Part shown: piece after piece, positions 7,491 to 61,766 of the stretch
Layout: each line of letters starts with the position of its first letter
How positions within the stretch are numbered: position 1 is the stretch's first letter
Assembly (NCBI GenBank): GCA_964187785.1
Contig: OZ076409.1
Location: 20,152,001 to 20,216,000, forward strand
Source: Amphiscolops sp. MND2022
Lineage: Eukaryota
Reading direction: 5' to 3'
DNA: 64,000 nucleotides
Position numbers and translations under genes: made by a program
The notes under the pieces: model-generated
The model's input: only the letters and a program-made list of their open reading frames with translations
What the model was told of the DNA's origin: nothing
Databases searched by the model: none

Positions 7491-10400
7491 TATGGTATCA
7501 GGTAACATTTTATCGCTGCTTTGGCTTGGAAAACTGTTTTTGGCCTCAATTCAGTCACTGTCGAAACTATGTTTTGGCTTGAAAGGACAAGAAATATCGC
7601 ACAAAATAGGTCTTTCAAGGGTTGAGAACCATAATCACTGTACTCCCGAGGACTCGTAAGGACTAGTAAAGTCACCAACTGGGCCTCATAAGTGCCCCCT
7701 CCTTCGGGTACTTATTGGCACTGAGAAAGTGATTAAAACTGTGTCATTTGCATATCCAAGAAACTTGACCAAAGCGCCGTTTCGGGCCGGTGCCGTGTTG
7801 TTGTCAATAGCCGTATCTTTCGTCAATTCTGTTATAAAATATGGAATTCCATCTGTTAAAGTTACTGTGTTGTGATAGACTGATAAAATAGAAGTTTTTA
7901 AGAGTTCTTTAAAGTTAACATTTGTGTAGAATCAACATGTATCATCAACTGTGACTGATATCTAACTGACCTCAAAAATAGCATCAACATGAAATGAGTA
8001 TTTTAAAGGTCAATGTTCTTGGCAGGTATATAGATGTCATTGCCGTCTAGCCATCTAAACTACGCTGGCTATACCACATCCCCACCTTCGTGGATCAAGG
8101 GAACCAGTCTTGCTGTCTTCCGGGCGTTTTGAGTGAAAGGGATCCAGCTTTAGTGGCGAAGTTGTTGCGGGTAAAGCGGATAACTCGTCCCAGTGTCTTG
8201 GCTTCGTTTCATAAACGCAACTACGCTATAACTGGAAATACTCCTTTCCACCTAATGTTTCCACCCATTTCGTTGTTTTCAGTCTATCAGATCTCCGGAT
8301 ATTGTTTTCCCTTTCAAATCTCACGGTGTTTTTCTTTCCTTTCTTCCCGACCCCCAAATACACCCTACCTTTTTTTCACCGTAGCGCGGTCGCTCGATGG
8401 TCCTGCTGGCGTTGCCGTTACATCGCGCGTACTTTTTCAGGTAGTACGTTCGGTGACATCGGCATCGGTGTTCGCTCACTAAACGGTTGATTTGCAGCCG
8501 TCGTTCTTCCTTCGTCGTTGTATGTTGTTTCCGCAACCAGCGGGAAAGCGTCACGTCCCGTGGTGTCAGATGCAACCGATGCAGTTTCTTCTGTGATGGG
8601 GTGTTTTTCAGTCTCCGTGAGTCGATCGTCCGTGATTACGGTGCTTTCTACCAAATCCTCGGGCTCCCTTAACGACATTGTCGTGACAGTGGTACTCGGG
8701 CCAGCTTCAGCGCAATTTTCTGCCATTAGTCTTCTGTGTGTGTAGCAGAAGTCTTCATTGCTAAATCACCCGCAACTTCGACATCTGTTGGTTGGCCTTC
8801 TGGTCTTCACCTGACTTTTTCAGGGCTGAAATTTTATGAGATTAGGTGCTAATTTTTTATGTATTACCCTTTCCGACGCTGTAGTTATAGTGTGAACAGT
8901 TTCCTTTACAGCAGTTAACACCTTGTCTGTTTTGAATCTACAATTCATGGCAATGAGTTTAGTCTCCTTTTCGTAAAATTTTCATTTTTTAAAATCTTGG
9001 TTTACCAATTGGGCTCTCTTTCTCGTGTCGTTGAGTACCAGATAGTCCACTAGTTCTCCATCACAATAGTTTGTGGTGAATACTTCCAATTCTGTGGTTG
9101 TGTGCTGAATTATATTTTGTCAGGGTTTTCTCCCAATTGGTTAGGAGACATGACGGTTGGTTAATCAGGTTAGTGATAGTCGTACGCAGTTTACGTCGTA
9201 ATAGCATTTGGAAAGGAGCTATACTTAGCGTGTTGTGCGGCGTTTGTCTAATTGTTTTGATTGCCAACTGGAAGCTTTCTTCAATCGTCAAGCGGTCTTC
9301 TAAATTAGCTCTTGTTAATGACTTAAGTGTCTGCATCGTTCTTTCCACCAATCCGGTGCCGGTATGTAATTTTGGCCTACACCGGATTCTCTTTATTTTT
9401 TCACCGTCACAAAATTCCTTGAATTCCTTACTTTTAAAAATTGCTACCGTTATCGGTACGATATTTCCGTGGTGTTCCGTTGTCTGAAAAGTATCTGAAT
9501 AAACATTCTAGGACAGTCCGAATTCTCGTAACTTTATAAAAGTGTGCAAATGGCCACTTGCTAAATCGGTCAATTGCTAAAAGGAAACATCTTCTCGTGT
9601 TTTGGATTTGATTGGGCCAGCGAAAGCCAATTGAATTTCTTGATTCGGTTCTATTAAACGTTCTAGTTATTATCTTCCGTATGCGGTCTTTGCATTTTAG
9701 GGTTCTTACCTGCGGCTCCACCACTGGAACAATTTTTTTGTCTTTCCTGTAACTCTCGGTGCATTCGTCGCCACCAGAGCGCCTCTGCTGCTTTGTCCAT
9801 TTTCGTAACTGCTACGTAGCTTGATGTAGCATTGCGATTATGGATGTCCCCACTACCTATGGGATGACGATCTTGTAAAAGTTGAACAGTAGTCCAAATC
9901 AGGTGGTGAGATGTTCTGTGTGGCCGGTAGGGATACAAGATGTCCTCTATCCGATCAGTTCCTATTGCTGCGACGGCGTTGAGGATTTTTACATCTCTGA
10001 CTGTATCATCTACAAGGAGACATCTTGTCTCATCTTCTCAGCTTTCTTAATTGCTTCTGCCGTCTTCTCATTGTTGATTCCGCCATGCAAGTTTAACTTG
10101 GCGGTTTTTTTCAGCCTAACAAAGTTGATGCCCTCATGTCGGTGGAACTTTCACAAAACGTCTGTTGGGCATTTGTCCTGTTTCACGTAGCTGGCTTGGC
10201 TATCTCCGTCGGTTACATTGTTCTTCGAAGATTTATTGCTGTTCTGTCGATTTCTGAGGCCCCAATTTTCGATGTCAGTTCCGTTACCTTTATCCTTTTT
10301 TGATTTTCACTGTAAGTTGTTTGCTTTTATCGAATTACCGATGTTTGATGGAGTGGTTGTTTCAAGCGAATGAATTAATTTTGGTTTGGTTCATGCATAT

Positions 10401-13400
10401 GTGTGCCATGCTGTGGTTGGTCTATTTTCCGTGACGACGCCGATTATTCGATATAATTGTCCGCGTAATCCTTAAGTTCGTGCGATTGAATTCGAACTGA
10501 CCGTATACTTGGAAAATTACGAATTTATCTTCGGCTTCTATTTCATCTTGTTTGGCGTTTTTGTTCTACTTCGTGTTTCTCACGGTAATCGATTACATGT
10601 CGGCATGTCGGTTTAGATAGCGGGTCAATGTGATGTTCTTTCCAGCTGTGTACGGTTCATTTACCTCAAAATGGTTTAACCGGTCGAACCAACGCGTTAT
10701 TGTCGCGCTGTACTGTTTATGCGCCCTATTGCGTTTGAGTAAAGGTTGAAGGGCTTGAATATTGGTTAATAAATTTACTTTTTTCCCGTAAACGTAATAT
10801 CTAAAATGCTCAAGGCCCCATAGTGCTCCCAGTAGTTCTAAATCATTTATAGCGTACTTCGTTTCACAATATGTCAGGAATCTGCTGAAAGGTTTGAGCT
10901 GAATGTCTCGTCTTCTTTTGGCCACAATGTTGTGCCCAGGCCGGTATTGCAAGCTTCTGTTGTTATGTAATTTTCCTTCTTCGGATCAAAATGTGTCAAA
11001 CACGGTGCTTTAGCAATTTTCTTCAGTGATTCGTAATCTTCGTTTATTTTCGCCGTCCACTCCAGTTTCATCCGTTTCTTTTGTAATCTTCTCATTCTAT
11101 CGGGCTTCTAGGAGAGATTAATTATGAACAATCATAGATGTTGAAAAGATCCCATTTTTTTAAAACTTAAGACAGACTCGAAGCGACGAACGTTAACGTT
11201 CAACTAAAGGAAACTAAATACCAGGGAAACAAATGTAAATTGTTCCAAAGGATCTCCCTTTGGTTTTTTACTTTTTAAACGTTACCTACAAGCCCGGACG
11301 GGACTGAAGGGTTCCCCCTTTCAATTTTTTTTCGGCACTTTGCGACTTTTTTTCGAATTTTTTCTGATGTCCCAAAATGGTCCCCCTTTTGAGTTTTTGG
11401 TTATTTTGCTACAGAATGCGTGTTTATAAATCAAAAAGGGTCCCACTTTTACATTTTTCGGCACTACGCGACATTTTCCGAAAGAAAGTTTTTTTTCGAA
11501 AATTTCAAGTTTTTTTCTAAAAAAATGTTTTGCGCTTTTTGAGCCTTAGATATAGCGCCGACTTGAAACGTTCCCGTCTTGTTTTCACTTGCTCTGTACC
11601 GGGCGTCTTGTAATTTGGATAAAATTTCACACAGCTCCCGTTAATGGTCTTCAACAGTTCCATTAGTTACACAAATGATGTCATTCAGACAGAGCGGTGT
11701 TTTGAATTCCCAATTTTTGTCGATGTGTTCCCGGAATACGGTGGGGATATCCGACAGTCCGTAGAAGCCTTTTTCAAACCGGTAGTGTCCGGTGTCTCCT
11801 CCTCCAATTATTGAAAACACGCAATGCTTTGATGCTTCTTTTGGCAACATTGCCGGCCCATACGCAGATTCTAAGTCGATTTTTGAAATCCATGTTTTAC
11901 CTTCGTCCTTCGTTATTTTTGCCTAACGTTTGCTGAATAAATCCTTTATATTTGGCATTGTTGCTTTCCTTCTGATAAAAACCTCATTCAACCTTCGTTA
12001 ATCTAGCGCTATTTTAACTGATTTATCTTTCTTTCTGGTTATTACAGCGGGAGATACAAGCAGTTTTCGAATGCCTTGTCCGCCCATTCCAATTGTCCTT
12101 TCTCGAATATTTTTCTCCAACTCTTGCCGTACAATATTTAGGACTGGATAAGGACTGGTCTCCTTTCTGTTGTATTGGTTTCGTGTCTTATTTCAAATGG
12201 ACAGCAATCGTCAGGTCTTTTATCGTGTCGTTCTTCTTGAATAGGTTTTCATATTCTGTGAAAGTTTTTCTATTCTTTCATTAGTGTTCACATTCCGAAA
12301 AATGTTTGTGCTTTTGTTTCCTTGTAATCCGATTTCCAGTTTGTCTAGTTAGTTCAATCAGTGTAGTGGTTGTGTATTTTTGCTTTCTGTAATGAGTACC
12401 GGCAGTGCCTCCTTGTTTTTTTCGGTTTTGACTTCCACCATGGATCGCCTTCAAACGTTATTGGATTTTTGTTTACGTCCACGAAGCACTTCGCCATCTC
12501 TTTGAATTCTTTCGGATTAATTATCCGCGAAATAATGACTGGAGAGCCTGTATCAATAATGAATGCTATTGGCTGTCCCTCGACCAATGAGATCGCTTTA
12601 TAAAAGTCTACTCGGTTCACGCCGTTGACTGATTGTATGTGATCGATTTCTGGCCATGACTCCGTATTACTGCCCGCTTCGTCTTTTTCCCGTATTTAAT
12701 ATAATGTCTTGGATTGGCAACGTTTGGCAAAGTGTCCCGTTCTCTTGCAAATGTTACATTGTGCTTTCCATTTCGGACATGTATGTTCCGGTGTCCATTT
12801 TGATATGCCGCAAAAGTGACAATTTCGATACGATTGTTTCCTCTTTTCCGTGTCGTTGATCCTCTATTTCCGTATCGACTTGGTGAATTTGATTTGTTCT
12901 CCGTCTGATTAGCTGTCAGATGAGCTGCCTGATGACAAGCTTCTCTGTATCTTGTGTTTCGACTTTTTGTTTCCATATTTACGGTATTAATTGTCTAGTT
13001 CAATGGTTTGAAGTACCAATTGTAATTTTAGTTGTCGTTGATGAACTTTTCCCGTGCTTTTTTATTGTTTATGTTTGCTGCAAATTTGCAGGTGTTTATT
13101 TCTTCCGGCCTAATTTTGTTTAATATCCACAAGTCTTTTCCAATATTCATCTAATGTTTCGTTTTCTTCTTGTGCCCAGATACTGAAGAACTGGGCTCTA
13201 CTGTGGAATACATTTTTTGTGGATAGGAACGTCTTTTTGAATAGTTTTAGAAGTTCATGTAGATTGATTTTTTTAAAATCTTTGCCCCATTGGCCTCTCA
13301 TCATTTCATTTTTCGCTTTCGAGCCCAGTGCCCAAACTTAAATACACTTGATATGATGTGTTGTGGGTGCGTCCAAAGTATCTGCTGCAAACAGATCCAT

Positions 13401-16768: not shown

Positions 16769-18758
16769 CTTGTAAAAAAATAGAGATCAGATATGTTGTA
16801 TGCTTCATGAAAAGTGACTTATACTTAGCAGAACTACAAAACTTTTGATGAGTGGATTCCGCAAAAACCTGAAATTCCGAAGCATTTGGCAAAGTAATTT
16901 TGGGTATAGAAGAGACAAAAATTTAAACTTCTATGAACTTCTAACAGTCCGTGAGACTGGTACTCTTACTATCTTTTAATTACCGTCTGATTTCCGTAAT
17001 GATTCCAGGCCGATCATGGCAAGATCATGGTAAGAAAATTTGTATGATTTCTATGGTGCCATAATATGGTCAGATTATGATCGGCCTGGTCGGGAAACCT
17101 GGGATATGTTATGCATATTGGATTGAAATCCGAGAAGTGAACTCACTATTGAATCTTGTTTCCTGTCTTATCCTAAGGTAGAACTATGATGAGAAACAAC
17201 AGTAACAGCAATGTACAATAGAGAAAGAACACGAAAGTGCTAGATGCAGGGCAAAAAAAAACGTTTTTGACTATGACCGAAATTTTCCAGATCTAGTTTT
17301 CTAATATAGAATTCACGTCTATCAAACGAAGTGAAGTACATTCCCCAGGTGCAGTGCTACAAGCTCGAACGTTTTGGGATTATAATCACAAATTTTTTTG
17401 ATGGTAAGAGGTTGCTTACTGGAGTATTTCGGGTTAAACCAATCCGCCGAAGCTACCCTATGAGAACCGATGGAGCGTACAAAAAGTTCAAAGGACTTTG
17501 TAACCACTTGGAACGATGCTATCGCGACTGTTGAAAAAATTCTTCAATCAAAATTTCCACCTTGGAATGTCACTTAGGTTCCAGGATTGCCACTGGGACC
17601 ACAGCTTTCAACCACTTCCGAAAAGACATCAGCCATTTTCTCTTAATATGTTTGGCCGAACCAGATGGAATTTCTCAACATTTGTCCTAAAAGAACGTTG
17701 ATGTGGTTTTTCAAACCAATGCAAAGGGGTCGCTTTTTCGCAAGAGAAAGTGTTTCACGATAGCTCAATGCAACGATCCAATGCTACTAGGTCATGGATT
17801 CCGTAATTACTTGTTAGAAGATACTGCTGTTTCGGTTTTGCTTGGGACTGATTAGCCTAGTATTTCCCTCGAAATATTTTGACTCAGACTAACTCTGAAG
17901 AAAGGGCGTGTCCTCTGCAAACGGACCAAAAGCAACCGCCTTACTCATGTCTTTCAGAACAACCATGAGGTAAAGAATTCAATTACAGGAGTGAAAAATC
18001 CAACTATATCAATAATGATACCTCACATATGTGGCAAAACTCTGCGTCATTGTGCTGATGGGTGTTCCACAGAAAGAGAGAAAACGAGACAGAGAGACAC
18101 GGGCGGAGAGAAAGCAAGCGAAAAAACCAAAACAGAAATCATTATAAGGGCGAATGTTGAGTTTTGTGTCTCTGGGCCAAAACTTGTTGTTCGTACATTC
18201 GACTCCTTTGCATTATTTTGTGTGAAATTGGACTCAAACAATTCCGGTATTTTCACTCAGTTTGCCATATAAGATCGGCTATCAGTCGCCTCTCACATGT
18301 CTTTGACAGCTTCCAAGACGGGCCCATTTTCCAACTTTTGGTAGTCCCGATTTTAGGAACAGAAATCATGGTGCCATAATTGTCCGTATCTAAATGTTTT
18401 ACGAAACCTTCATCAATTGGGAATGAAGTCCCGCCATGCGTCGACACCAGTCCTTCATTCATTCTGTTGAGATTCATTCAAGATAATTTTTATTGTTTGA
18501 CTTTGAGTTGCCTAACACAATCGGAAAACTTTCAAATTCTCTCAGTTCAAAAGCATTAAGTATATATCGACGTTCTTTCTTGATATATTATTGAGTTATT
18601 GCTCAAGAAGATTTCACTTTGTCGCGTTGAGGACGCATTCATCGAAATCCAGTTAGTTGTAAGTTCATATTTCCTATATAATTTATAAAATTTGGTAATT
18701 TTACCAATGCTACACTACCAAGAAAGATATTTAACTTTTACTGTCTTTACCAATTAGT

Positions 18759-19154
18759 CAAATGCTTCTAATAATAACTACTTATATATCTCCTACTGTT
18801 TTTAGTCGGCGCTTTTTCCCTTGAAGAAAAAAGCGCGACTAATAGTGACGAGTTTTTCAAATGCTTCTAATAACAACTACTTATATATCTCCCACTATTT
18901 TTAGTCGGCGCTTTTTCCCTTGAAGAAAAAAGCGCGACTAATAGTGACGAGTTTTTGAAATGTTTCTATTAATAACTACTTATATATCTTCTACTATTTT
19001 TAGTCAGCGCTTTTTCCCTTGAAGCAAAATACCCGACTAATAGTGACGAGTTTTTCAAATGCTTCTAATAATAACTACTTATATATCTCCTACTATTTTT
19101 AGTCGGCGCGTTTTCCCTTGAAGAAAAAAGCCCGACTAATAGTGACGAGTTTTT
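18759..19154 (+). repeat. Tandem array of 4 x 99 bp
   Basis: Units start at 18759, 18858, 18957 and 19056; each is ~40 bp of flank plus a HINE 5' terminus. Confidence 0.95.
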
Positions 19155-19839
19155 CGTCAGGTAACAGAATGTTTGCGCATTGACACTTTTTGCAGAAACT
19201 AATAAAACTATTAAACCAACGTACCGGTCAAGCCTGGCCAGCGAAAATGCATCTGAAGTAGTGCAAAAGGTCTCCCCTCTCATTTTTTTCAACGTAACAG
19301 AAAACCGAACGAGACTAAAGGGTCCCAAATATTTTAATATGTTGCAACAGAACGGATGTTACAAAATCTCAAAGATTCCTCCTTGTACATTTTTTGGAAC
19401 TATGAGACTGTTCAAAATTCTCATTTTATGTCTCATTTTACGTTTTCTCAAAATATGTCCAGAATTTTTTTTCAATACTATCCGAATTTTGAGGGGGAGG
19501 TTCGATATTTCAACGTTATATCCGAAGGATATTGCTTTTTACTAAGGAGGAAGCGGAGGCTCGAACACAAGCGCTATCATTTGTCCCAGCACGCTATATG
19601 CGAACGTTTAACGTTATATCCGTAGTAGTTTGCGTTTTACTGAGGAGGAGCCGTAAGATCAAATAAGCGTTGGTATTTGTCTCAGGACGCTTTTGAAGCG
19701 TTTTTCGAGCACGAAAGGCGCCCTTTTGGTGTTTCGAAGTTTTATGTGAATATTTCATAAACGTCCTGAGCAAACTGTCAAAGCTTTGCACTTCCTGAGC
19801 CTTAGTTATAGCGCCGACTTTTGACGTTCCCGTCTTGTT
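19096..19839 (+). mobile_element. HINE family 1 copy
   Basis: tttttagtcggcgc start; gcgccgacttttgacgttcccgtcttgtt end. Confidence 0.7.
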
Positions 19840-21372: not shown

Positions 21373-22077
21373 AATTTTCTCCCATAACAGGAAATTAACG
21401 TCTATTAGAATAGTTTTTGGGCTCTTTTTCCTTTTCCCCACACTTTTTAAAGAAGAAAACAAACTCAACATAAAGGATTATATTTGACTATATCATTCAA
21501 AATTTCTTCAAATTAGTCTTACTTTGTTTTGTTGTCTCCACATGAACTCACACAAGTAACTGTCAACCATACTTCTTCAATTCATTTTTGAGAGTCAAAA
21601 TAAAGCCGGAAGTGAATTAAACAAATTTTTCAAAAAATTTGTCAATATTCAAAAGAGACTATTTTTTAAATTAAATGAACTGTTTCATTGGAAACTCAAT
21701 TGAGATATAATTAATTGCAACAAGCCGGAAACGGCATACATCGGCGCCATATCTAAAGCTCAGAAATAGCAAAAGGACTTCAAACTGTCGAGTATTCCTT
21801 ACTTTACAAGTATTCTTTACAAGTATTCAGTACCTGAAAAACCCAAGAAGTTTGACCGAATTTGGACCCGGTGGGCTAAAAGGGGGATCCTTTTGGATTT
21901 TTAACATCCCACGTTGCAAAACATCTAAAAGTTGAAGGGGGCCCTTTAATGATACATTTTTTTTCAAAAAAAGTCTCACAAAGCCGAAAAAACTGAAAGG
22001 GGAGAACATTTGACTTTTCAACATCCATTCTATCACAGAACATTGAAGGGGGACCATTTGGAATTTTTTCGAAAAAA

Positions 22078-27521: not shown

Positions 27522-27854
27522 TGATGATGGGTCGGATAGCGCTGGCGGGTGATACAACGAAATAGATGAAGCAAGGTGATGGTGAAATATAGGATGGCTG
27601 CGCAAGGGCGAAGCAACAGGACAAAACTGAAAAGCAAGTTTCAAATGAACATAAAAGGAAAGATCTTGAACAGACTGAAAACAGATGGGACAAACACAGG
27701 GTTATAAAATTGGAAAGGACAGTGCTTAGGATTAAAAGGTCTTTAGTATGATACTTTATCGTTAAAAGGGGTAGAGTTCGTTCTGTCATAAAAAAAATTA
27801 TATCTAAAACAGTGGTGGTGAATGAAAAGTGGGAAGTCCACTGGCCTTACAGTT

Positions 27855-30800
27855 TCAGGGATTGTCCGTGGTCCTTACATAGGATGAAGTTACCGATGCA
27901 ATGGAAACGTAAACGCGGTCGTGGAGAATTATTTCAAGGTTATGACCCGTGAAGTGGTCGCGGAGCGTGGCGTACCATTTTGATAATAGGTTTATTGATC
28001 TTTCTGGGTCATAGATTGGCAAGTAAAATCGCGTGACGCGACGTTGGTGGAGTTGATGTAGGAGATGCGTGAGGCATGCGTGTAGGGTTTCATGCAGGAG
28101 CGAATGTTTATTTGAGGCTCTGGTACACAGGAAAAAAATTTGATTGTTCCAGGGTGCAGTAGGCGCGAGCTGTCTAGGCGTACGGCTGTGCCGACTGATG
28201 GCTTTAGGCGGAATATGTTTTCTTGCCCATATTCGCGAATGACATAGCGATCTGTTGCAGAGTAAGAAAATAAGACTACGGTGCCTGGGGCCTGTAGGAT
28301 ATCTGTGTTGGAATAAGTTATCCAGGGCAGGTAGCTTGGTCTGGTTTTTGGTTGCGTTATGAGCCTTTTCCCTGCAGCATCGTCGTTGATGTCGATTGAG
28401 TGGGGTGTCAAATGTTCGCTCGACGTTCTTCCTTTACCGTGTGACGTAAGGGGCGGTCGCCCATGTTGATGCATGACCAGTCGTGTATTATGGAGAGGGC
28501 TTCGAGGGAGTGTATGGCGCTTCCGGTGTGTATGTTAATCGATCTAAGATGTGGATCTTGGCTTGTCGGCAGAAGGTGATAGCTATCAGTTGTAAGCAAT
28601 GTTGACTCAAAAACTTTCCGCGGTAGATGTCGGCAAGGTGGAATCAGAGAGTGTCATCTACGTCTACGAGGGTGCGCAAGTTTTCTAGACATATCAATAG
28701 CGTGGTTGGGGAGACTAGGGAGGAGTGATCGAGGGAAGTGACCAAGAGCCACCAGCCGTGGGTAGGTAGGTTGGTAGACGTCACCCGGGGGGAGACCACC
28801 TGATACTTCTCCCATAATTTGTGCGCAGTGATGCAGCGAAGCATCTCTGCATTGGTGCATGCTTTATCCACTTCTCCAAAAGTAATCGAGGGTGGTAACG
28901 GGAGAATAATCGCGGTTAGAGTAAATTCCAGTCCACTATGCTGATTAGAAGTCCATTCTTTAAAGCGGTAAGTAGAGCAGTCGGAGGGGAAGAGTCCTGC
29001 ATTGCTTTTAACGTGGATTCTATAGGTGGTACTACACCGGATTCTGTACTGGTATAGGTCTTTTCCACGGTCACGATGATGTGGGGTACAAAAGGTGAGG
29101 GTTCGTGTTCTTGACGCTGGGCTCGCACGGCTAGGATCCCATATTGCGGGTGTTCAGGTGTGCGTGTCGGAGCGAATTCACAAGCTGGGATGAGCGCTCC
29201 CCGGGCCAATCGAAGACTTGGGGGCTCGATGAGGATTTGGCGTACTCAAGTACAGTTACAGGAACCGCAGGTTCCACATTTATATCGTGGTGCTCGATTT
29301 GCTCGTAGCTGGTATCGTGGTGTCCGTGTTGAAACATTTCCGTGTGGACCGGATTGAGTAGATGAGGGGCTCTCAAGGATCTCATGCAATGTCATTGCTC
29401 TATCGTGAGTTCCAGGTTGGGCTCTAGTAGAGAATCTCGTTCTGGGTCCTTTTCTGGGCCGCAGTGGTGGCTTCCGAGAAGATGTTGTGCTTCTACTAGA
29501 GGAAGTGGTGCGCTGGTTTCCGCGACCAGGGGGTCTACCTCGTGGTCTTCCTGGTGCGCTTACATTTTTTGGTTGGGCTGGGAGTGAGGATGTTTCAGGG
29601 TTCTGACTATCCTGCTCGGCATTGGTCCTTGTGGCTGCTCTTCTTGTGCTAAGGGCCTTGACTCACTCGGGTTGAAGAGGGGGATGTTGCTTAGGGTGTC
29701 TGTAAGCGATGGGTTGGATAATAATGGAGCTGATGTCCCTGAGGGTGATGGTATCAAAGTTTCGGTGAGCATCTCTAGTTGAACTTCTTCTTGATCGGAG
29801 AATAGGGTCTCCAAGTCGTCGAGTTCTGGGGATACCACCTGAGGAGTTGGGTCTGGGATTGGCGGTTCTGTTATTGCTGGCTCCGAGTCGGAGTCAGATG
29901 GGTAATCGAAGTGACTGAATCTTCTTCGTGGGATTCCCTGTTCGAGAGCAGTCTGTGTGCGGGTTTGGATAGTCCGCGAGGGAACCGGTCTGGTTGGTTT
30001 CAATTCGAAAGATGCCTTTGGGAGCTGTTCCGGTACAAATGAATCTCGGGAGACGTCTGAGGTGATTTCTTCATTAGATTCCTCCACATGTGGATCGGCT
30101 ATTATGGCTACGTTCTGGTCTGGTCCGAGTGGTTGGTGTGTGGCCCAGTCCCAAGGGGCGGGTACGTGTTTTTTTCAGTATTCCATAATTGACCTTTTGG
30201 CCAGTACCAAATACGTAGAGACGTCCGTCTTGTAATACATCGGTTACTTTGTGGGGTCGGCGCCATGCGCGAATCAGTTTACGGGTGCCACCCTTGGGGA
30301 TTATGTGGCAGAAAACCCAAACAGCGTCGCCAACGGCATGTGCTTTTGCCTTGAGGTGGCAGTCAAACTTCAATTTTTGCCTGAGCTGGGCTTGGTGGGT
30401 ATTTCTTCGAACTAACTCATGAATTTCTTGTTGACTTGCCAGCGGGTGTTCCACGAATTCCTCTTAGAGTTGAATCCTCGTGCTGCGAATTCTGGGTATA
30501 TGAATTACAATGGAATGGATTTTTTGCGCCATGTTGGAGCATGTATGGCGAGAATCCTGTTGTGGCTTGCCTGGTCAAATTATAGGCACCCAACACTCTG
30601 TCAATATGTTCAACCCAGTCTTGCATTCTGCGTGACGTGTAGACTCTAAGTAAGGTAAGCAAGGTTCTGTTCTGGCGTTCGACGAGTCCATTACCCCTGG
30701 GATGTGCGGGCGTGGATGTCACTTTGGTGACTTGTGATGCCTTCATTATTTCTTGAGCTATTTCAGCAGTGAAATTTGTCGCATTGTCTGATTGCATTCG

Positions 30801-40347: not shown

Positions 40348-41070
40348 TGTAACGTCCGGCTAGCGGTGCACATCTAGGAAGAGGGTCAATGCCTAGGATG
40401 CTTAAACAGGAGACCGTTGTCTTACTACATACCTAGACACTAGTTTTTGGTCCCAAAATGGTCTCCTAGGGGGACTTTTCTATCGTCTAAGGAGGCTTCT
40501 CTAGTTAGAGCTCCGAAGCGACGCGCCGGCACTCTGAAAGTCCGGACACGCCCCACAAGCATGTAAAAACGTATCCTAAGGTTTCTGGCTAGTTCCTACG
40601 ACTTCCTACATACTTCCGAGGTCCAAAAAGGTGTCTATCTGAAATACATTGTATTTGATGGATAAGTTCTAAAATACAGACCTAGTAGGTCTAGCATCAC
40701 CCAAATACTTGACAAATGATAACAAAATACGGGGATAAGCCCCAACAACATTACATTACAGTTTAGGATGCTTCATCTACTCGGCCTCTGGCGTCGTTCT
40801 TCACTTTCGGGTGTCTTCTCGGAGAGATGGCACAACATTCCGATTGGGTTGATCTTTTCTTCTGCTGAATTCTCCTTCTTCTCCATCTCATTCTTCTTTC
40901 TTTTTTTGATATTCTCTCACTTGCTTTCTTTTTTGCTCTACTTTCGCGCTCTTTTTTCTCTCGTTCACGTCTTGGTACCTGCTAGGTCGGCCATTTTGAA
41001 TGTGCTGTTTTGATATCGCACATTTCGAAATTTTCATCGAAGATTTGTCATGCCGGTGGCTGACGTTACA
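40348..41070 (-). repeat. 5' LTR (723 bp)
   Basis: Direct repeat of 22078-22803; TG...CA termini. Confidence 0.97.
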
Positions 41071-43289
41071 AAAAGTCTCACAATGCCGAAAAAATCTGAA
41101 AGGGGGGACCCTTTAGTCTCCTGGTATTGTGTTACGCTGAAAAACATGAAAAACCTTTTTGGTTCAGTTCGCTAAGCCAAATGTTTTAATTTGGCACCAT
41201 AAAAGTTCGTAGAACTTTTAAGAACTATTTTGGTCAGTTCGTGTGGATTGAAAAAAGGGTTACTATAGTAGTCGCGTTTCACTTCATGAAGCGCCGAATA
41301 AAAACATCATCTTGAAAAGTGTGGGGGAAAAGGAAAAAGTACCGTTTATTGTTTCAACAAAACATTTTTCACGCATTTTGACTATGTTCGTATTCACTGT
41401 TTGTTGTGACTCAAAACAGGAGGCTGTTGATTTCTTCAAGAAGAATTCGTGACTTCATAAAGAGAAATGTTTTTGCTTCGTAATCAAGTGTTTTTGTTAT
41501 CATATTTTCACGAATTTTCCAAAAGAAATTGTTGTTGGGTGGGACAGAAAAAAGCCCGGCATTTATGTCGTCTGAGTCGTCTGAGTCGTCAGATTGAGAA
41601 ACAAGATTGTTTGCAAATTTCACCTTAGAACTTGCCGAAAGTATCAAAAAATTATACAAAACTTTCAACAAGCGTACGATATAAAGATCGCCGAGAATTC
41701 CGACAGTCCAACTTTTATTTATTGACAAAATTTCTCAATTACAAAGCTGTAAGTTATTTTTTCGACACGACTGTGTGAATTTTTTGGGATTTTTTTTCAT
41801 GTAACAAAAAGTTTTCGTTTTTCTATTCTCAGTTAGAGAAATGTCCTTTTTGAGTCCTTGATATCTTCACTTCGAAAATGAACTGGTACTATGGAAGTTT
41901 GAGAATTGTGTTCCCGATTTCTTACATTGAGGAGGGTTGCCCTAATGGCACGAGATTGCAAGAACGTTTCAACACAGAACTTTTTAGCGCGCCGCTAAAT
42001 GGATGAGAAATTTTCACGGTTTCACATTTTTTGGGGTTTCTTTAGGGCTCCTCAAATTCAATATAATCGAAAGTGGATTCCTCTGGCACAATTTGATAAT
42101 ACCCACACTTTTTTCAAACTGAACCGAAACAACAGAAACTTCTGATATATCGAGCAAAAATCAAGTAATAATTTCTGATATACCTTATATTCATTACTCT
42201 ACATTTCAATGTATACACTAAAGTTTAGATATCTTCCATCCGGTTATGGTGTTCTGACGTAATCCATTTTTTCGGTGTTGACAAGTAATGATCGAATTTG
42301 TTCAAACCGTTTCCTGTTTGAATATGAAGGTCTTCAAAATTATTAGGGGAAAAACAGCGACTCCGGACGAATTTTTAAAAACTTCCTAAGCACTTGTCGA
42401 AACACCATGGCTGCGCTGGTACCCTGGAGCAATTTTGACGGAACCCAACAACCGCCTAACCCAAAGTGACAAGGAAAACACGTACAACATAGTCAACTAG
42501 TTTTATGAATTCATTTCAGTCATGTAACGTTATATTTGTTAGGTCTATTGTTACATTGGAGTTGAGTAAACATTGTTAATAATCCAATATGTCATATTTG
42601 CTAGGGCTCATTCATAAACAGATGACTTGGGTTCATAAAGTATGTCTTCAAGTGAATGAGTTGAACTGAAGTTGTGCAATCTGAATGCCCTTGAGTGACT
42701 TCTGTGTCCTTATACATCGTATTATGATGAAGATAGAGGTTAATATACCTTTTAAAGCCATATGAATGTTCGTCAATTTGCGTTTCTCAGATTAGTGAAT
42801 ATGCATCAAAATGCAGTTCGAAAATTTGTGACCAAAAGTCACTTTGAGCTTTAGCAATAACAAAAGGACGTCATGATACGTCTTTATGGATGACGTATAT
42901 ACCCTTAACGTTCCTTAATGTACTCTTCATGTGTAATCCTTAAGGCTCCATGGTTTTACATGAATTATACTGTTGTTGCGATGTCATGTAGCGGAATTTT
43001 TGCAATCTATGAACAGAATGACAGCAGGTGACGTAATTCTTTTTATTTCTAATAAATGTTTCAAAAACCGAGTGCCATGCAAAAAAAAATTGGAAAAGCG
43101 TGCGCTAAACATAGGATTTCACTTTTTGAAAAACTGTTATACTCAACAAGAACTCTCCACAATCATTTACTCTTGTAAAGAGATAATTGATCACGTGTTA
43201 GTTCTTCATTATCTCAAGTTTTGATATCAATTTAGTCAATCAAAAAATCAAATATTTCTCGCAACAAAGCGGATTTTCAATCGAGCAAA

Positions 43290-46028: not shown

Positions 46029-46523
46029 GTCTCAAATCAACACCCCGTTTTGTCAGCTCAAGGTCTTTCATATATTGTTAGGGGTGCTTCTTCCTTCAAA
46101 CCTAAACGGGGAGCATTTGGTCTTGTCTAGTTTTGCAAACAAAAAATTGATCCTGTGCGGAATTCAAATCCTTGAAATGAGCAACTTAAAAGTACTAAGC
46201 GCTTTGGAACCTTAGGAGTCTCCCCAAATTAATCCGTTCCCTGTTTTTTTTGTGAAAACTCCGTGAAATTTAGTTTCGCAGTGCAGTTTAAAGTTCACTT
46301 TTTTTCTCAAATTTCACAATATAAGAAATCTGCAATGCCTCATTAATTCAGAGGTGGGCTTATGAAAAACCTGGAGTTTGTGATTATTGCCATTATTGCG
46401 AAATCATGTTGGATCAAGCTCATGAAAAACTATTCAAAATAATATTTTTCTTCTAATAAAAGAATAACAATCTATGTCAAACATCGTTTGCATTTCAACA
46501 CTCAGGGAAACATGCACTTTTGC

Positions 46524-48210
46524 CTCTGATTGGTCCAGGTGTGGTTATTCTACTTGAAGACGTGGTCGTGTCAATATCTAGGTGACTCAGCCGAGTTGCC
46601 CCTCCTGCATTGATGGAATCCCTCCACTCTTCCACGTAATTCTTCCCCATTTCGCCATTGTCATTGCCTTCTGGCATCGACTTGTGGGGCTGGAATATGA
46701 TGGTGCATTCTGACACATTTGAGATGTCGTTGCGTCGAAGTAATTTGCTACTAGGCTCACTTTGTTCACAGTTTCCTTTGGTTTGTTCAGAGCTCTTTTC
46801 AATAGCTTCTGTCGACGTTTCTTTGTATGCTTCGGATGAAGACTCCTTAACATTCTCGTTTTCATCTTGAGTTCTTGTTTTTCCAACTTTTGATGGTTTT
46901 TGTTCTTCTAAAACAAAAGTTTCGTTTTTGTTGACTCCTTGAAATGGTGATGATTTTTCTTCCTGGGGTGGGAATACTTCATTTCGAACACTTGTATTGC
47001 AACTTTCAGTTTTTGCATCTTTAAATTCAGTAGCTTCTGCTTCCGTTTTCCTCGGTTTGGCGTCTTCAAAACCAACATTGTTTTCATTCTTGGGAACTTG
47101 TTCAGATGACGGCTCACTTTTTGAATTTTTCCTCGAAGTCTCCCTTCCTTTATTTTTTTCCTTGCCATCTTTATTAATTGGTAATTCAACAGGGACATTA
47201 CGTGGATCTTCTGAATTGAAATTTTTGCTATTTTTCACATCTGATTGAGGTTCTTCACCTAACACTCTTCTGTTCGCCGGCTCTTTTTTCAACCTTTTCT
47301 TTCCGGAAACAACCACTGGCCTACTATCATCTTTCGATTGAGGCTTCGATTTTTCCTTGTGAATAATTTTGTCTTTTGCTTTCTTCGATACATCAATTTT
47401 TCCGTCATTTGATCCGTTGGACTTCGAACTCGAACAATTTTTCAGTTTTTGACCCTGAGTTTCCGGAGATTTTTCAGTAACACTGTCATTCTGTTTAGTT
47501 TGATGTTTCACGATTGGGTTTTTGTTTGTCTTGACACCCATGAGTTCTCGGAATTCACTCTCCAAGTTCAAGTTAGCAGTCTTGACGCGATTGTCAATGG
47601 GAATATAAAATTGATTGTCATTAGCGTAGGTCTTGGAATGAGAACTGGCTTTGACTTCAGATCTGATGCTCACAGTCGAATGTTTAGTCGAAGGTATTTC
47701 AGGCAGCTTAGGAGGTTTGATTTCAGGCTGGGCACTACCATGTTTCACTAAAAGTGCGGGTAATCGTTTGGAATCTTGTAAACTGAAATGGTGAATTTTG
47801 TAATCGAGAAGTCGTTGCTTGTGGAAAGTTTCTTCGGATCTTTGTTCCAAAAACAGTTTCTTCTTCAGCTTCAAATATTTCAAAGGATTGTTACTTTGGT
47901 AACTCAAAGGACTTTCTTTTTGCTTCGGAGTAGAAGATTTGTTGTTTTCAATTCTCCGCATGCAGCTGTCAGTGAACTTTTTCGACCCCATGTAAGCAAA
48001 GTAACCGCTTTCAGAATGCGATGGCAAAGCTTTCACCAAGTTTTTGTTTCTCGGCGCTTTTCTATGTTCCATGTAAAAAGTACTCAATATTGAATGACTT
48101 CTCATTGGCTCAAGAATCTCGTAGAAATGGGAGTCTGACCCAGTCACTGTTGTTACTTCGCGTCTCATATCGAATCTGTTTTTGAGACGATAGCTGGTTT
48201 CCGAAGGTGG
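46524..48210 (-). CDS. Large exon encoding a ~560 aa K/E/S-rich, probably disordered region; likely the N-terminal part of the LRR gene
   Basis: 576-codon stop-free ORF 46495..48225, opened by a pyrimidine-rich acceptor (ttttttgttttcgtttcag|CCA, exon start 48210). Two candidate phase-1 donors (G|gcaaaa after 46524, A|gtgcat after 46518) match the phase-1 acceptor of exon 16647-16768. The link is inferred; the ORF could instead end at its own stop (46495). Confidence 0.7.
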
Positions 48211-51200
48211 CTGAAACGAAAACAAAAAACTTCATTCTTTGAAAACTTTTCATGATTCAGTCTTTAAGATTCGGCTATAATTAGAGGAATCAAACAAAAA
48301 CAAGATGGATGTATTTCATGTTATCAAAGAACTCTTAGCAGCAGTTATTTGTATTTTTGAATTTTTGAAATGCATTGAAATTTTAAGCTAGTAACATCTC
48401 ATGAGCGACTTGAAATTGCTTGAATTTTAAATATGTCTCCCAATAATGCTGCTCATTCTATCTTCAAAACTACCGGTAACTTTAATGTTTTGAAACTTTC
48501 ACGTATTTGTGAAAATTTTGGGTTTTTTCAACTTTGGAACAATTTTCCAAAAGTTTTTTTTGTTTTTTTTTTTAAAAACAACTTTAATTTTTTGTTTGAA
48601 GTTTTTCTCGGAACAGAGGATAGTTACAAAAGAAATAGTTTCACTTCTGGTCAAGTGATACTCTGAGCATTTTAGGCTCATTATTTCATTATTCGATTTG
48701 TTTTTAATTGCGGCGCTTTTCACTAGTAAAAAGTGCAAGACTCTTACAGTGGTTTTTTACAGTCAGTCAATCTGAAGCGTCCTTTTTAAAAAATTTTCCC
48801 GAGTTTTATACAACTTTTTGGTCTAGCTGTTAACGCATATTCATATTTTCAAGCCTGGTTCGAGTCCCGCACTAAACTAAAGTTTTTATTATTCCAAAGG
48901 TAGAGGAAAGACCTATGGCCCCCCTTCGTGTTTTTTTTCGGTACCATGAAACTTTTTTTCTGATTTTTCGAACTAAAGCCCCTCTTCAATTTTTAGCAAA
49001 CATAAAGCGTTTTGCGAGCATAGAGGAACCCTATGCAATTTTTCGAAAAAAATAGAAGGAAAAACTTTTTGAACTCTTTTTCACACACAATCATGGGAAA
49101 CTGTTTTCCGAGTCTTAAGGGTGACCTCTTTGGTTCTTTTGTGCTCTTTTGGGACTGATGAGAGTCTTCTCAATGAATACCTTCTTCACATTTAAAAAGT
49201 TTTTGCCTTGGAAAAAGCGTTTTGCGAACTTAGAGGGTCTTTTTTGACGCCGTGAGACTTTTTCCGAAAGACAAAGTTTGGATTTTTTTCAAAAATTAGG
49301 TTTTTGATGTTTCGAGTTAGGGCAAAAGCGGTTTTTGAATCTTATGGGTATCCCTTTGGGTGTTTTTGGCACTGCTAAAGTGATGAAAATTTTCCTTACT
49401 TCAGAAACTTCAAGGGGCATTGCAGATAAATTGAAACAAGTTAAAAACTAAGTAATAATCAGTAAGTTAGATATAGCTTGAACTCTTGACGATTATAATC
49501 ATGTAGAATTGAAAGATTTCACCAAGATTAAAACCGTTCGTAGAAATATCCATTTTTTGAAGAATTTGGAACTGCAATGATAAAACTGAACGTCAGGTCA
49601 AGAAATAATTGAATATTTGTTGTCATTGAAACGACCTGAGGTGTTATTTGGCTTATTTCTTTTCCCAGCATTAATCTGAGACTTGGTCCATTCATGTGTA
49701 ACCAAATTGGAAAACGTAATTTGATTGTTTCGGTTGTTAAAACAGCAAAGACGGTAATTCCTGCCCGCCTTTCATTCTCCAGACATTGTCTGGTTGCTTT
49801 AAGGAGCCAGAGAAACAACATTCAAAGCTGCAGTTCTGGCTACTGTGACATACTGGAAGAGGGTTTGCAGGTAAGGCTTGCTAACATCTGCGACCTCTTT
49901 GTTACCTGAACGGATTAATTTAGGCCACACAAAACATCAAATTCCTCAAAGACTCCTCCATTCAAAAGCAATACCTTTTCTGTTTTGAAATGGCTCCTGG
50001 TCCAACTACCACAAGGTAATTGTTCTACAACAATGATCTTAATCAGCTCTCAATCGGGAAACGTCTTTTTTCAAAAAAAAACTCTGTAGGATGTTTGCAA
50101 ATCTAGAACAAAATTAGCTGAAAACAAAACAAATTTTGCTATTCAAATATATGCTTTTCTTTCCATTACCAATTGAGCTTTTTCAACAAAAGACTTCTCG
50201 GGTGGCTATAGTTATTATTTCAGAATTCCTTCTTCGAAATTATTAATTCCCGTGCGTGTGCATTATTCGTCTTTAGGTCTCGATGGTTTTCTTGGAACTA
50301 TCAGTGAAAATTCACTGTATCCTCGCCATATAAACACAGTCTTCAAGCAAATAAAAACTAAACTATTAAGTAAGATATGACCTCGCAAACAATTCGACTT
50401 CCTCTTTGTGCTCTGTGAAATTATATTTTAGACCATGACGTTTTGAAACGCAAAATCTTGTCAACCAAAACAAGTCCTTGTGCAACAAACCCGAATAATA
50501 TCCTGTTGTTACTACAAGCCCCCGCTTAGTGGGCCGCACGAAGTACGGAACTGCCGCGAAGCGACAGTACCGGAAAAAAACTAAAATTCTGAAGGAAGAG
50601 GCGCGCGGCGACAGGAGCTCACGTGACCAAAATGAAAGCCCAATACCAGACCTTTCAAACGCACTATAGTTAGTTTCTTTTGTACGCGTAGTTGTAGAGA
50701 TATTAATGATTTAAAATTTTTTGTTCAGATTTTTACAAAATTTGCAAAAACGCCCAGATCAATTAGGGTTAACAACCCATTATAGCACCAAACGTTGGAT
50801 CAGGAATCAGTAAACAGAAATTTAATGGTCGTGAGTAGCCTCTGGATTCCTGAGAAGCAAAAGCTAAATTGAAGCAAGTGAAAAAAGTTGGTAGTTCATT
50901 TTCCTTCTTTCATGATCATGTTAGACAAACTTATAAGCTATTATATAAAATGCCGGGTACGGAACAAGTCGGCGTCTCGCTCAAGTTTCAAAAACCCAAG
51001 TTTTTTCAAATATGCAAAGAGCCATTTTGTTCAGGGCCGAAAAATATCCGAAGGATACGCATTAGACTCGAAATTCACAAAAATTTTGAAAAACCGCAGA
51101 GTGCCGAAAATTTTATAAAGGTTTTTTTACAATTATGAATAACTCTCATCAGGTCCACAGGAGCCAAAACTATCGATGAGGTCACCTTTAAGACTCTGAA

Positions 51201-51758
51201 AGTTTTTGCCCTCAGAGAAAACTTTATGAATCTATTGGACCTATTTCCAACGTATGAAATATAAACCTTTTTTCCATGATTTTTCAAAACTCTACGGAAA
51301 GTCGCATTGTGCCGAAAAACCCTCATTGCTCGCAAAACGTTTGGATCCTGCTGAACAACAAGACGACGCAACTCGGTTGAAAAAACCTCTGAAAACATGT
51401 TGCATAGTGCCAAAAACATAAGATTCCAACCTCCGTCTTCTCCCTATTTGAACGCAATTTACTTAGTGAAGTAGATACATTTTTAACACCGTTTTAAGTC
51501 TTACAGTGGCTAGTTTTATCTAAGTAAAACAGAATTTTTGACGTTATCTCCAAACTATGTTGCGTTTTGAAGAGGAGGAGGTGTAGAATCGAGAAAAGGC
51601 GCTCCCAATTGCCTCGGCACACTATCCGAATTTTTGACGTCATATCTGAATTAAATTGCTTTCGAGAAAAAAATACGCCCCGCTCAAGACTCAAAAGCGT
51701 GAAGTCTTTCAAAACTTCGAATTTTGATAGATTGAAACGGTGAGACATAAGATTGCAA

Positions 51759-52541
51759 AACAAGCCGGGAACGGCATAAATCGGCGCCATGTCTAAGGAT
51801 CAAAAATAGCTAAAGGACTTCATAGTGTCATGTATTCTTTTACAGTACCCGAAAAACCCGAAAGTAGGAACGAATTGGCGCGCCATGGGGGACGCTTTGA
51901 GATTTTTCATCCATTCTGTCGCGCAAATCATCAAAACAAGCCGGGACCGACCCAAGTCGGCGCCATATCCAAGGCTCAAAAATAGCAAAAGGTCTTCCAA
52001 GTGTCAATTTACAGTACTCGAAAATCGAAAAACCAAAAAAATGGACAGAGTGGCGCGCCGGCGCCCGCTAGCGCGAGCCCCTGGCGCGCTAAAAGGGGGG
52101 ACACTTACGAAATTGTCAACATTTTTGTCACAGTTGAAGGGGGACCCTTTGGAGAGAAAACAATTTTAGGAAAAAAATCTCACAGTGCCGAAAAATCTGA
52201 AAGGGGGGACCCTTCGGGATTTTCCAACATCCATTCTGTCGCAAAACAGCAAAAAAATTGAAGCGGGGGGAAAAATTTGGGGAAAAATTTTATTCGGAAA
52301 AAAAGTCTCATAGTGCCGAAAAAAATTAAAATGGGGACCCTTTGGTATCGCCCGGTATGGTGTGTTACGCGGGAAAACAGGAAAAACCTTTTTGAATCAG
52401 TTCGCTAGGCCAAATAGTGCAATTTGGTGCAATAATATTTTATAGAACTTTTAAGAACTATTTTGGTCAGTTCGTGTGGATTGAAAAAAAGAAAAGCCAC
52501 TATAATAGTCGCGTTTCACTTCATGAAGCGCCCACTAAAAA
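51759..52541 (-). mobile_element. Composite HINE family 1 copy with two 3' ends (51759 and ~51935)
   Basis: aacaagccggga...tcggcgccat occurs twice; gcgcccactaaaaa at the other end. Confidence 0.7.
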
Positions 52542-61100: not shown

Positions 61101-61766
61101 ATTTCCCCTGAACAAAAAAGTAGTAACCTTGAGAACTTGCGGAATAAATTGAATCAGGTTTCCCTATTTGTGAGATCAGCAGTCACTCAATTACCTATTT
61201 CTGTTCAAATTTTTGAGGACGATTAGTCTAATTTTGCTTGAATGTCTTCGATAATGCAACGATAATTTACTGATATGTCCTCGTGACAATAAAAAACAGA
61301 CAGTCCAAAAACAATCTGTATGTATTTGGGTCATCTCGTAGAAAGTCATTCTTTAACCCCCTGTGACTCAACTATAAGCTGTATGTAAAGAAACCTTTAA
61401 ACCATCTAACTCTCAATCAACGCCCGACGTCCGTGGGCAAGCCTTTTGACGACGCGCGCCAAATACAATCAAACGGCGCGACCACATTCTGGGTTTTTTC
61501 TCAATCTACAAGTTATGTTTATTTGTAGTTTAGCTGTATATTTATATATTCAAGTAGCGTTGTTAATAAATCTGCCTGAAATTTCTAAAATCATGTTTCA
61601 CAGACACGTCGACACTTTCAATTTCTTCGGGAAATGAGAATCTCCTGGTTATTTATTTCGATAAAAATTATTTCGTTAATTCGGTTTTGGTATTTATTTA
61701 GTTTTGAATAAACTTTTAATTCAAAAAGTCGCCGTTCCGTGAGTTACAGGCGAATTTGTCATAATC
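55145..61766. repeat. Head-to-tail duplication of a ~2.92 kb unit; the first unit also carries an internal 780 bp duplication
   Basis: atcaccccctacaccggatatgcc at 55145 and 58845; both units end gttacaggcgaatttgtYata; gagattctatctaaccaataa at 55920, 56700 and 59621. Confidence 0.95.

Follow-up and report, generated by a model that had tools for sequence, protein, structure and literature searches.

Two degenerate domains of predicted macro fold, one closest to TARG1, at the C-terminal end of Pol in a Ty3/Gypsy retrotransposon family

A Ty3/Gypsy polyprotein that ends in two predicted macro-fold domains

The DNA analyzed here is a 64,000-nucleotide (nt) stretch from Amphiscolops sp. MND2022 (contig OZ076409.1, positions 20,152,001 to 20,216,000), called the window below, with coordinates counted from its first letter. 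On its minus strand it carries a 19-kb long terminal repeat (LTR) retrotransposon of the Ty3/Gypsy type, whose relatives end their Gag-Pol polyprotein in two macro-fold domains, M1 and M2. M2 has, by modeling, the fold of human TARG1 and a pocket in which the catalytic residues and the phosphate-loop glycines of TARG1 are replaced, for the most part by other conserved residues. From sequence and models we propose, tentatively and with somewhat less than even confidence, that M1 and M2, as a tandem of pseudo-macrodomains, form a docking module on the tail of integrase, which would serve as a tether to host chromatin. The relatives are natural proteins, numbered P0xxx below; the window copy itself is broken, and all structural work was done on intact relatives.

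The initial annotation of this DNA had placed a macrodomain at the extreme C terminus of Pol, encoded in two pieces, and both pieces are indeed found on the minus strand: a 5' piece at 28324-28175, in the frame of open reading frame (ORF) 27992..28534, and a 3' piece at 28166-27858, in the frame of ORF 27855..28433. Relatives align to both pieces consecutively and in one frame, the closest with 82-86% identity, and the 3' piece on its own gave matches in 65 of 90 candidates (E ≤ 0.001), so that the M2 match is not due to chance. The domain had been described as hidden by a frameshift; the frame break is present, but it is not special, being one of 17 such changes in a decayed copy, and the relatives read straight through. 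A programmed ribosomal frameshift was rejected, since both pieces share a single frame in the relatives; the T run at 28139-28133 is, moreover, located ~30 nt downstream of the switch.

The proposed fusion to the end of Pol holds in the intact relatives, in which one open frame runs through integrase to M2 without a stop in between. In full, this single frame reads gag-protease-reverse transcriptase (RT)-RNase H-integrase-linker-M1-M2; in P0081 (2974 aa), protease, RT, RNase H, and integrase are recognized by Pfam and M2 stands at the end. In a census of 405 proteins, 96 contained RT (>50% identity) and integrase, and 58 of these had a tail of at least 800 aa. All but one of the long tails (57/58) end in M1 and M2, and the 58th, that of P0374, ends in a clear M2; the remaining 38 of the 96 proteins have shorter tails, some of them cut inside the tail. 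With dozens of intact, 98-99% identical polyproteins of 3000 aa, the family looks recently active.

Only one macrodomain had been recognized in the initial annotation, and this count proved too low, as a second macro-fold domain, M1, lies upstream at 28931-28542. A search for longer relatives returned 30 proteins, all belonging to the M1/M2 Gypsy family, and the best 150 of 280 matches in a profile search with representatives were all family fragments, while a pattern search of metagenomes yielded 92 pattern matches, none of them a relative. The nearest named RT relatives are from fish and frog (38-41% identity), and M1/M2 profiles found no tail domain in them.

M2 is predicted to descend from a TARG1-like gene

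The TARG1/OARD1-like fold, first suspected from a block pattern of conserved residues, is supported by models and by a sequence bridge. An AlphaFold2 model of M2, built on P0110 with 39 family sequences, reached a pLDDT of 83.5. In Foldseek, ranks 1-8 for this model were all TARG1 (best E 4.2e-9, TM 0.82), and VIA gave a Z of 16.3 for TARG1 (rmsd 2.3 A, 135 residues aligned), followed by DarG (15.0), 2AFC (13.2), and Poa1p (13.1).

The bridge is provided by P0374, whose terminal domain matches human TARG1 at E 1.1e-6, with no other significant PDB match, and P0110 at E 1e-13. Compared directly with TARG1, the family profile gave E 1.1 only, and the homology to TARG1 is therefore transitive via P0374. 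The Pfam Macro family (PF01661, cut-off 22 bits) had no match in the window pieces or close relatives, and the P0374 domain scored 13.7 bits (E 0.061), below the cut-off; direct sequence searches of PDB and Pfam with the window pieces, P0110, or alignment A1 likewise gave no macro match. The ESM Atlas returned phage hypothetical proteins of ~150 aa (0.91-0.92) and, at 0.89, a cluster with Macro on 14% of its members, which we regard as a lead only. From the models and the bridge, descent of M2 from a TARG1-like gene is predicted.

M2 resembles human TARG1 (OARD1/C6orf130; PDB 4J5S, 4J5Q, 2LGR; ALC1-like class) in being a minimal macro fold of ~150 aa, in aligning without gaps over the C-terminal half, and in having equivalents of D20, D37, T83, and P118. 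It differs in overall sequence (14-17% identity), in the pocket residues described below, and in being part of a tandem fused to the end of a 3000-aa Gag-Pol. The next-best folds, DarG (5M3I), Bacteroides 2AFC, and yeast Poa1p (6LFQ), are free enzymes or antitoxins, and DarG keeps the catalytic lysine (PMC7050489).

M1 is shorter and more degenerate. Its model (P0044 residues 46-161, corresponding to the window coordinates given above) was best matched by 2AFC (Z 12.2, rmsd 2.5, 114 aligned) and Poa1p (6LFQ, Z 10.8), and it lacks the first loop and helix of the macro fold. M1 and M2 share, in the last loop, an Asp (138/147) and an Arg three residues further on (135/147), and a profile-profile comparison of the two gave E 3e-4 with a probability of 40%, so M1 is likely an older duplicate of an M2-type domain. 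In P0374, a direct BLAST of the M1 region against the M2 region gave nothing; the M1-like region has a weak M1 profile score (E 0.024) and long alignments at 23-26% identity, which suggest that M1 is present in the P0374 lineage.

The pocket of M2 has lost the TARG1 signature in a patterned way

Pocket residues were counted over 212 distinct M2 sequences, each denominator being the number of sequences that cover the position. The TARG1 chain numbering is offset by six from that of the literature, and K84, G121, G123, and D125 were placed consistently. The replacement of the catalytic lysine by arginine, reported from the window copy, is family-wide, with R in 173/181 sequences and K in a single one (P0174). 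The position of G121 is D in 162/166, that of G123 is E in 155/166, and that of L124 is R in 160/164; G43 is kept in 1/189 and is A in 176/189. D125 is kept in 1/161 and is mostly S or P, and K84 and D125 never occur together. Even P0174, with its lysine, has D121 and E123. Furthermore, the published TARG1 pattern TKx(30,35)Px[IL]GxGxD (PMC6397177) was found in 0/405 proteins and in 0/6 frames of the window. Among 16 divergent representatives (<60% identity), D121 occurs in 16/16, R84 in 14/16, and R124 in 12/14.

The phosphate loop (PRIGCG) had been thought missing. It is in fact present, since it aligns to TARG1 without gaps and keeps its length in 159/163 sequences (4/163 gapped); its residues are substituted, and a deletion is rejected in favor of a loop of unchanged length whose glycines are replaced. 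The window copy is also six codons shorter than its relatives near 28270.

The GxG loop of TARG1 grips the pyrophosphate (PMC6397177), and both ADP-ribose binding and catalysis are lost in the G123E mutant as well as in G43E, with RNA binding still present (PMC5928194). Given that G123E alone inactivates TARG1 and that the M2 family has E123, TARG1-type hydrolysis has very probably been lost in M2, and ADP-ribose binding has probably been lost too. On sequence grounds, M2 falls outside the TARG1 hydrolases, as it has neither the catalytic Lys84/Asp125 pair nor the GxG loop. The idea that the domain counters PARP-based defense by hydrolysis or by binding ADP-ribose is thus not supported as a lead: with both phosphate-loop glycines acidic, countering PARP by hydrolysis is unlikely, and the change corresponding to G123E abolishes binding in TARG1. 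The replacements are conserved rather than scattered, and the pocket has probably been remodeled for another use; conservation of the new residues across deep lineages suggests that the remodeled pocket has a job.

Inheritance of the tail

The 26-row RT tree places the window copy together with P0344/P0345 and the P0081 group (99/99), within an 11-row clade (100/98) that also includes P0351 and P0353, both of which carry M1 and M2. P0374 falls outside this clade; its long branch attaches, with weak support (86/83), to the clade of short-tailed relatives P0388, P0370, and P0392, whose tails of 242-422 aa show no macro domain and may be truncated. Identity to P0081 in M1 and M2 drops in step with that in RT: an RT identity of 81-82% goes with 45-48% in M1 and 43-46% in M2, and one of 57% goes with 31% in M2, which fits vertical inheritance of the domains with the element.

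The terminal domain of the deep-branching P0374 lineage (residues 2673-2819) retains G43 and D125 of TARG1, but R84, D121, and an acidic residue at 123 are already in place. We regard it as a candidate intermediate.

A putative docking module on the integrase tail

The initial annotation likened the position of the domain to that of the chromodomain of chromoviruses. Of the two roles that it put forward, the targeting of integration coincides with the reading that we tentatively prefer. Its terminal position is indeed that of a chromodomain, but the pair starts ~390 residues past the region that we take to be GPY/F, with the domains lying ~390-590 residues after it, and Pfam found no Chromo domain in P0081, P0048, P0353, or P0374. 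The linker contains an AT-hook-like [RK]GRP core in 44/44 proteins of at least 690 aa and a four-cysteine motif in 41/44 long relatives.

The mechanism that we consider starts from the fused frame of the natural relatives, with an M2 predicted, with the help of the sequence bridge, to come from a TARG1-like gene and an M1 that is likely an older duplicate. Replacement of K84, G121, G123, and D125 by R, D, E, and S or P would have removed hydrolysis and probably ADP-ribose binding, judging from G123E in TARG1, and would have left a pocket whose conservation points to a job. The sum of K and R does not exceed that of D and E in 8/8 counts of M1 and M2 domains, and M2 has no net charge or a negative one in 4/4 lineages; as the domains are not net basic, a protein partner, in our view a host chromatin protein, would be favored over a nucleic acid surface, and the AT-hook-like motif would grip AT-rich DNA. 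The insertion of the window copy at an A-tract fits such a grip, in a single case only. The tail would stay on integrase and steer or license integration, a putative role equivalent to that of chromodomains in chromoviruses.

A bolder form of this proposal, which we consider doubtful but worth stating, is that a Gypsy lineage converted a captured ADP-ribose eraser into a novel type of chromatin reader, whose acidic D-x-E-R pocket would recognize a mark on histones or other host proteins, or a noncanonical ADP-ribose adduct, and would direct integration. If true, this would be a second, chromodomain-independent solution to targeting in LTR retrotransposons, with a traceable path from enzyme to reader that leads through P0374.

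Several observations weigh against a docking module. Residues were mapped through two HMMER alignments to TARG1 (E 1.1 and E 1.1e-6) and not from inspected coordinates, and the structural models are those of relatives, P0110 for M2 and P0044 for the longer tail, and not of the window copy; the tandem model of P0044 is poor overall (mean pLDDT 53, pTM 0.36), with block means mostly of 65-82 over M1. One young subfamily contributes about 50 of the 57 full tails as near-identical (98-99%) copies, and the independent cases amount to about four lineages. Conservation of M1 and M2 (43-48%) exceeds that of the linkers (30-42%) only modestly and stays below that of integrase (66-67%). E123 falls below our 85% reporting line in the 16 divergent representatives and stands at 32/36 in the set below 52% identity. 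The equivalents of D20, T83, and P118 are kept in 172/181, 157/181, and 151/167 sequences (D20 being mapped by its place in the β1-β2 loop, from the M2 model and PMC6397177), and two conserved arginines flank the pocket, so that nucleotides may be bound in a new mode. Finally, a linker of ~390 residues, mostly acidic or basic, parts integrase from M1, so that the protease of the element could cut the pair free, and neither the AT-hook-like nor the four-cysteine motif was seen in the tail of P0374.

The retained residues bear most directly on the possibility that M2 reads ADP-ribose, poly(ADP-ribose), or another adenine nucleotide through its remodeled pocket, with Arg side chains in place of Gly amides, and recruits the integration complex to ADP-ribosylated chromatin or soaks up the mark. 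This view, which we consider unlikely, would account for the retained D20, T83, and P118 equivalents, for the conservation of R84 and R124, for G43 and D125 in P0374, and for a fold nearest to TARG1, DarG, and other ADP-ribose handlers. It must contend with two acidic residues in place of the GxG glycines and with Ala at position 43 in nearly all sequences, when G123E and G43E each suffice to abolish binding in TARG1 (PMC5928194), as well as with an M1 that also has Asp at the position of G121 and is devoid of the first loop and helix.

Binding of nucleic acids (element RNA, cDNA ends, or G-quadruplexes) on the surface of M1-M2 has precedents in the two macrodomains of the SARS-unique domain (SUD), which bind G-quadruplexes and not ADP-ribose (PMC2674928), and in TARG1-G123E, which still binds RNA (PMC5928194). 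Tandem SUD structures are among the fold matches, and R, Y, and H residues are conserved in the domains. SUD and TARG1 use basic patches, whereas K+R is at most equal to D+E in all eight domain counts, and SUD matches the M2 model far less well than TARG1 does (Z 7.9 versus 16.3); we consider this explanation improbable.

A shade more improbable is the release of M1-M2 from Pol by the element protease as a free accessory protein, for instance, a decoy or scaffold against host silencing. The long low-complexity linker before M1, the moderately fast divergence, and the macro domains that fish epsilon-like retroviruses carry in extra ORFs (PMC4977317) speak for it; the linker, its motifs, and the domain order are, however, kept in lineages ~80% identical in RT, membership of Gag-Pol ties M1-M2 to the particle, and no cleavage site was identified.

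We consider it very unlikely that M2 acts as an ADP-ribosylhydrolase by a mechanism other than that of TARG1 and strips PARP marks from element proteins or cDNA. Some ALC1-class hydrolases do work in the absence of the TARG1 dyad; SCO6735, which is without both TARG1 catalytic residues, is still called a hydrolase, and DarG retains the lysine only (PMC7050489). P0174, moreover, has K at position 84, but in M2 not just the catalytic pair is changed, the substrate-binding loop itself being acidic, even in P0174. That M1 and M2 are a captured fragment of a host gene drifting without function, as their lower conservation relative to RT and integrase and the short-tailed sister clade with its possibly truncated tails might suggest, is scarcely credible, given that all but one of the 58 long tails keep both in frame up to the end, that conservation is patterned down to 31% identity, and that the model is foldable.

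Relation to known systems

The closest functional analogy to M1-M2 is the SUD of coronavirus nsp3 (SUD-N/SUD-M), which likewise consists of two tandem macro folds in a viral polyprotein and does not bind ADP-ribose (PMC2674928). It belongs to an RNA virus, its Z is about 8, and its basic, G-quadruplex-binding surface is absent, by net charge, from M1 and M2. The integrase chromodomain of chromoviruses and the chromatin-reader fusions of Gypsy elements, above all Chromo and PHD, which are common in these elements, are similar in that an extra host-derived module stands at the C terminus of Pol (PMC12440569; bioRxiv 10.1101/2021.11.30.470311). They differ in fold, and M1 and M2 are without a known mark. 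In fish epsilon-like endogenous retroviruses, too, an LTR retroelement carries a macro domain (PMC4977317, citing Basta et al. 2009); in their case the domains are additional ORFs in Retroviridae and not a tandem degenerate pair fused to a Gypsy integrase.

No description of a macrodomain fused to a Gypsy integrase was found in the literature searched, and prior notice is possible. A word search for "macro" in PMC13524379 and PMC12440569 gave none, and the passages retrieved from PMC7729036 mention no retroelement macrodomain. With M1-M2, the few host domains known to have been captured at the C-terminal end of Gypsy Pol are joined by a module that Pfam does not recognize. It also offers a natural series of TARG1-fold pseudo-enzymes that bear the very substitution used by biochemists to kill ADP-ribose binding and that can show what the fold does besides handling ADP-ribose. 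If M1 and M2 steer integration, their mode of targeting is a new one; if ADP-ribose is still read by them, this would indicate that ADP-ribosylation acts on retrotransposons. Host mono-ADP-ribosylation (MARylation) of L1 silencers is the subject of PMC4695847.

Structure and decay of the window copy

The element has the features of Ty3/Gypsy (Metaviridae) elements: LTRs of the TG...CA type, a polypurine tract, and the order protease-RT-RNase H-integrase, with Pfam recognizing zinc knuckles, RT, RNase H, and integrase in that order. All features given here are on the minus strand. The 5' LTR (41070-40348) and the 3' LTR (22803-22078) align over 727 columns with 27 mismatches and 2 gap openings (95.9%). 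A motif at 40331-40322, 16 nt inside the 5' LTR and starting with TGG, is a candidate primer-binding site. A leader of ~2.9 kb (40320-37450) without any ORF of at least 100 aa separates the 5' LTR from the start of gag.

The decayed gag (with zinc knuckles) and protease region was located at 37430-34083 by tblastn with P0081 and P0344 and by Pfam (zf-CCHC, and Asp_protease in P0081), and the decayed RT and RNase H were located at 33337-31755 (RVT_1, RT_RNaseH_2). The zinc finger and core of integrase follow at 31307-30522 (Integrase_H2C2 E 2.7e-16, rve), and then the presumed GPY/F-type region at 30337-30100, assigned from the sequence and from alignment to relatives, with an approximate end. 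Behind an acidic, proline-rich part of the linker, the AT-hook-like basic motif lies at 29551-29519, and the four-cysteine motif (CxxC...CxC), a possible zinc site, lies at 29290-29252. M1, assigned by the model of P0044, has an in-frame stop at 28646-28644. The M1-M2 linker (28541-28325, ~70 residues) has two frame changes in the window copy and a low pLDDT in the tandem model. M2 spans 28324-27900, with its frame change between 28175 and 28166, and the stop of gag-pol is at 27857-27855; relatives as a rule stop 0-20 residues past M2. A polypurine tract (22811-22804) directly precedes the 3' LTR.

Compared with the intact relatives, gag-pol of the window copy falls into 18 frame segments (17 changes), 7 of the changes lying between the integrase core and M2, and another in-frame stop occurs at ~29248. 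The two indels between the LTRs correspond to ~1.4 per kb per copy; at this rate, ~13 would be expected over 9.6 kb, and the 17 changes can thus be explained by neutral decay, with assembly errors also possible. Judged from its sequence, the window copy is a dead insertion that cannot produce the fusion because of the 17 frame changes and the in-frame stops, and the M2 frameshift is a lesion of decay and not a mechanism. A look-up of sequencing runs covering 27800-30500 came back empty, which says nothing about expression.

Between pol and the 3' LTR lies a decayed extra coding region (27521-23372, about 4.5 kb), in which several ORF pieces (100-290 aa) remain and to which no family is assigned. 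These pieces, which follow pol as does the env ORF with its transmembrane segment in errantiviruses (env-bearing Gypsy elements), gave no Pfam match, no Atlas assignment, and no clear transmembrane segment (best 19-residue hydropathy 1.9, in a fragmented region). One of them, ORF 26431-25709, has a likeness to a degenerate SGNH hydrolase, which was unsupported by Pfam, tblastn with P0381, and the Atlas. P0381 (RT 57% identical) itself has a GDSL/SGNH domain after integrase at residues 1328-1469 (PF13472, E 8.8e-7, below the cut-off), and it may be a read-through or rearranged copy.

Insertion site and other features of the window

The insertion site is the A-tract of a dispersed host repeat, and the junctions fit a 4-bp AAAA target duplication; look-alikes of the empty site, with seven A, occur in the host repeat at 21966, 52298, and 62757. 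Copies of this repeat lie at 21700-22070, 41070-41300, 51740-52540, 62620-62780, and 11300-11580, and the LTR element splits one of them at its A-tract.

The remnant of a second, distant Gypsy-type element occupies ~9200-12200 on the minus strand (RNase H E 1e-12, integrase core E 2e-5, weak RT matches). An unbroken frame of 578 codons at 46495-48231, also on the minus strand, is K/E/S-rich and without a Pfam match, and is probably a host exon. Recent local duplications of 0.8-2.1 kb with ~97% identity extend over 55145-61766, and a tandem array with a 99-bp period, whose central copies are 91-97% alike, is found at 18650-19243.

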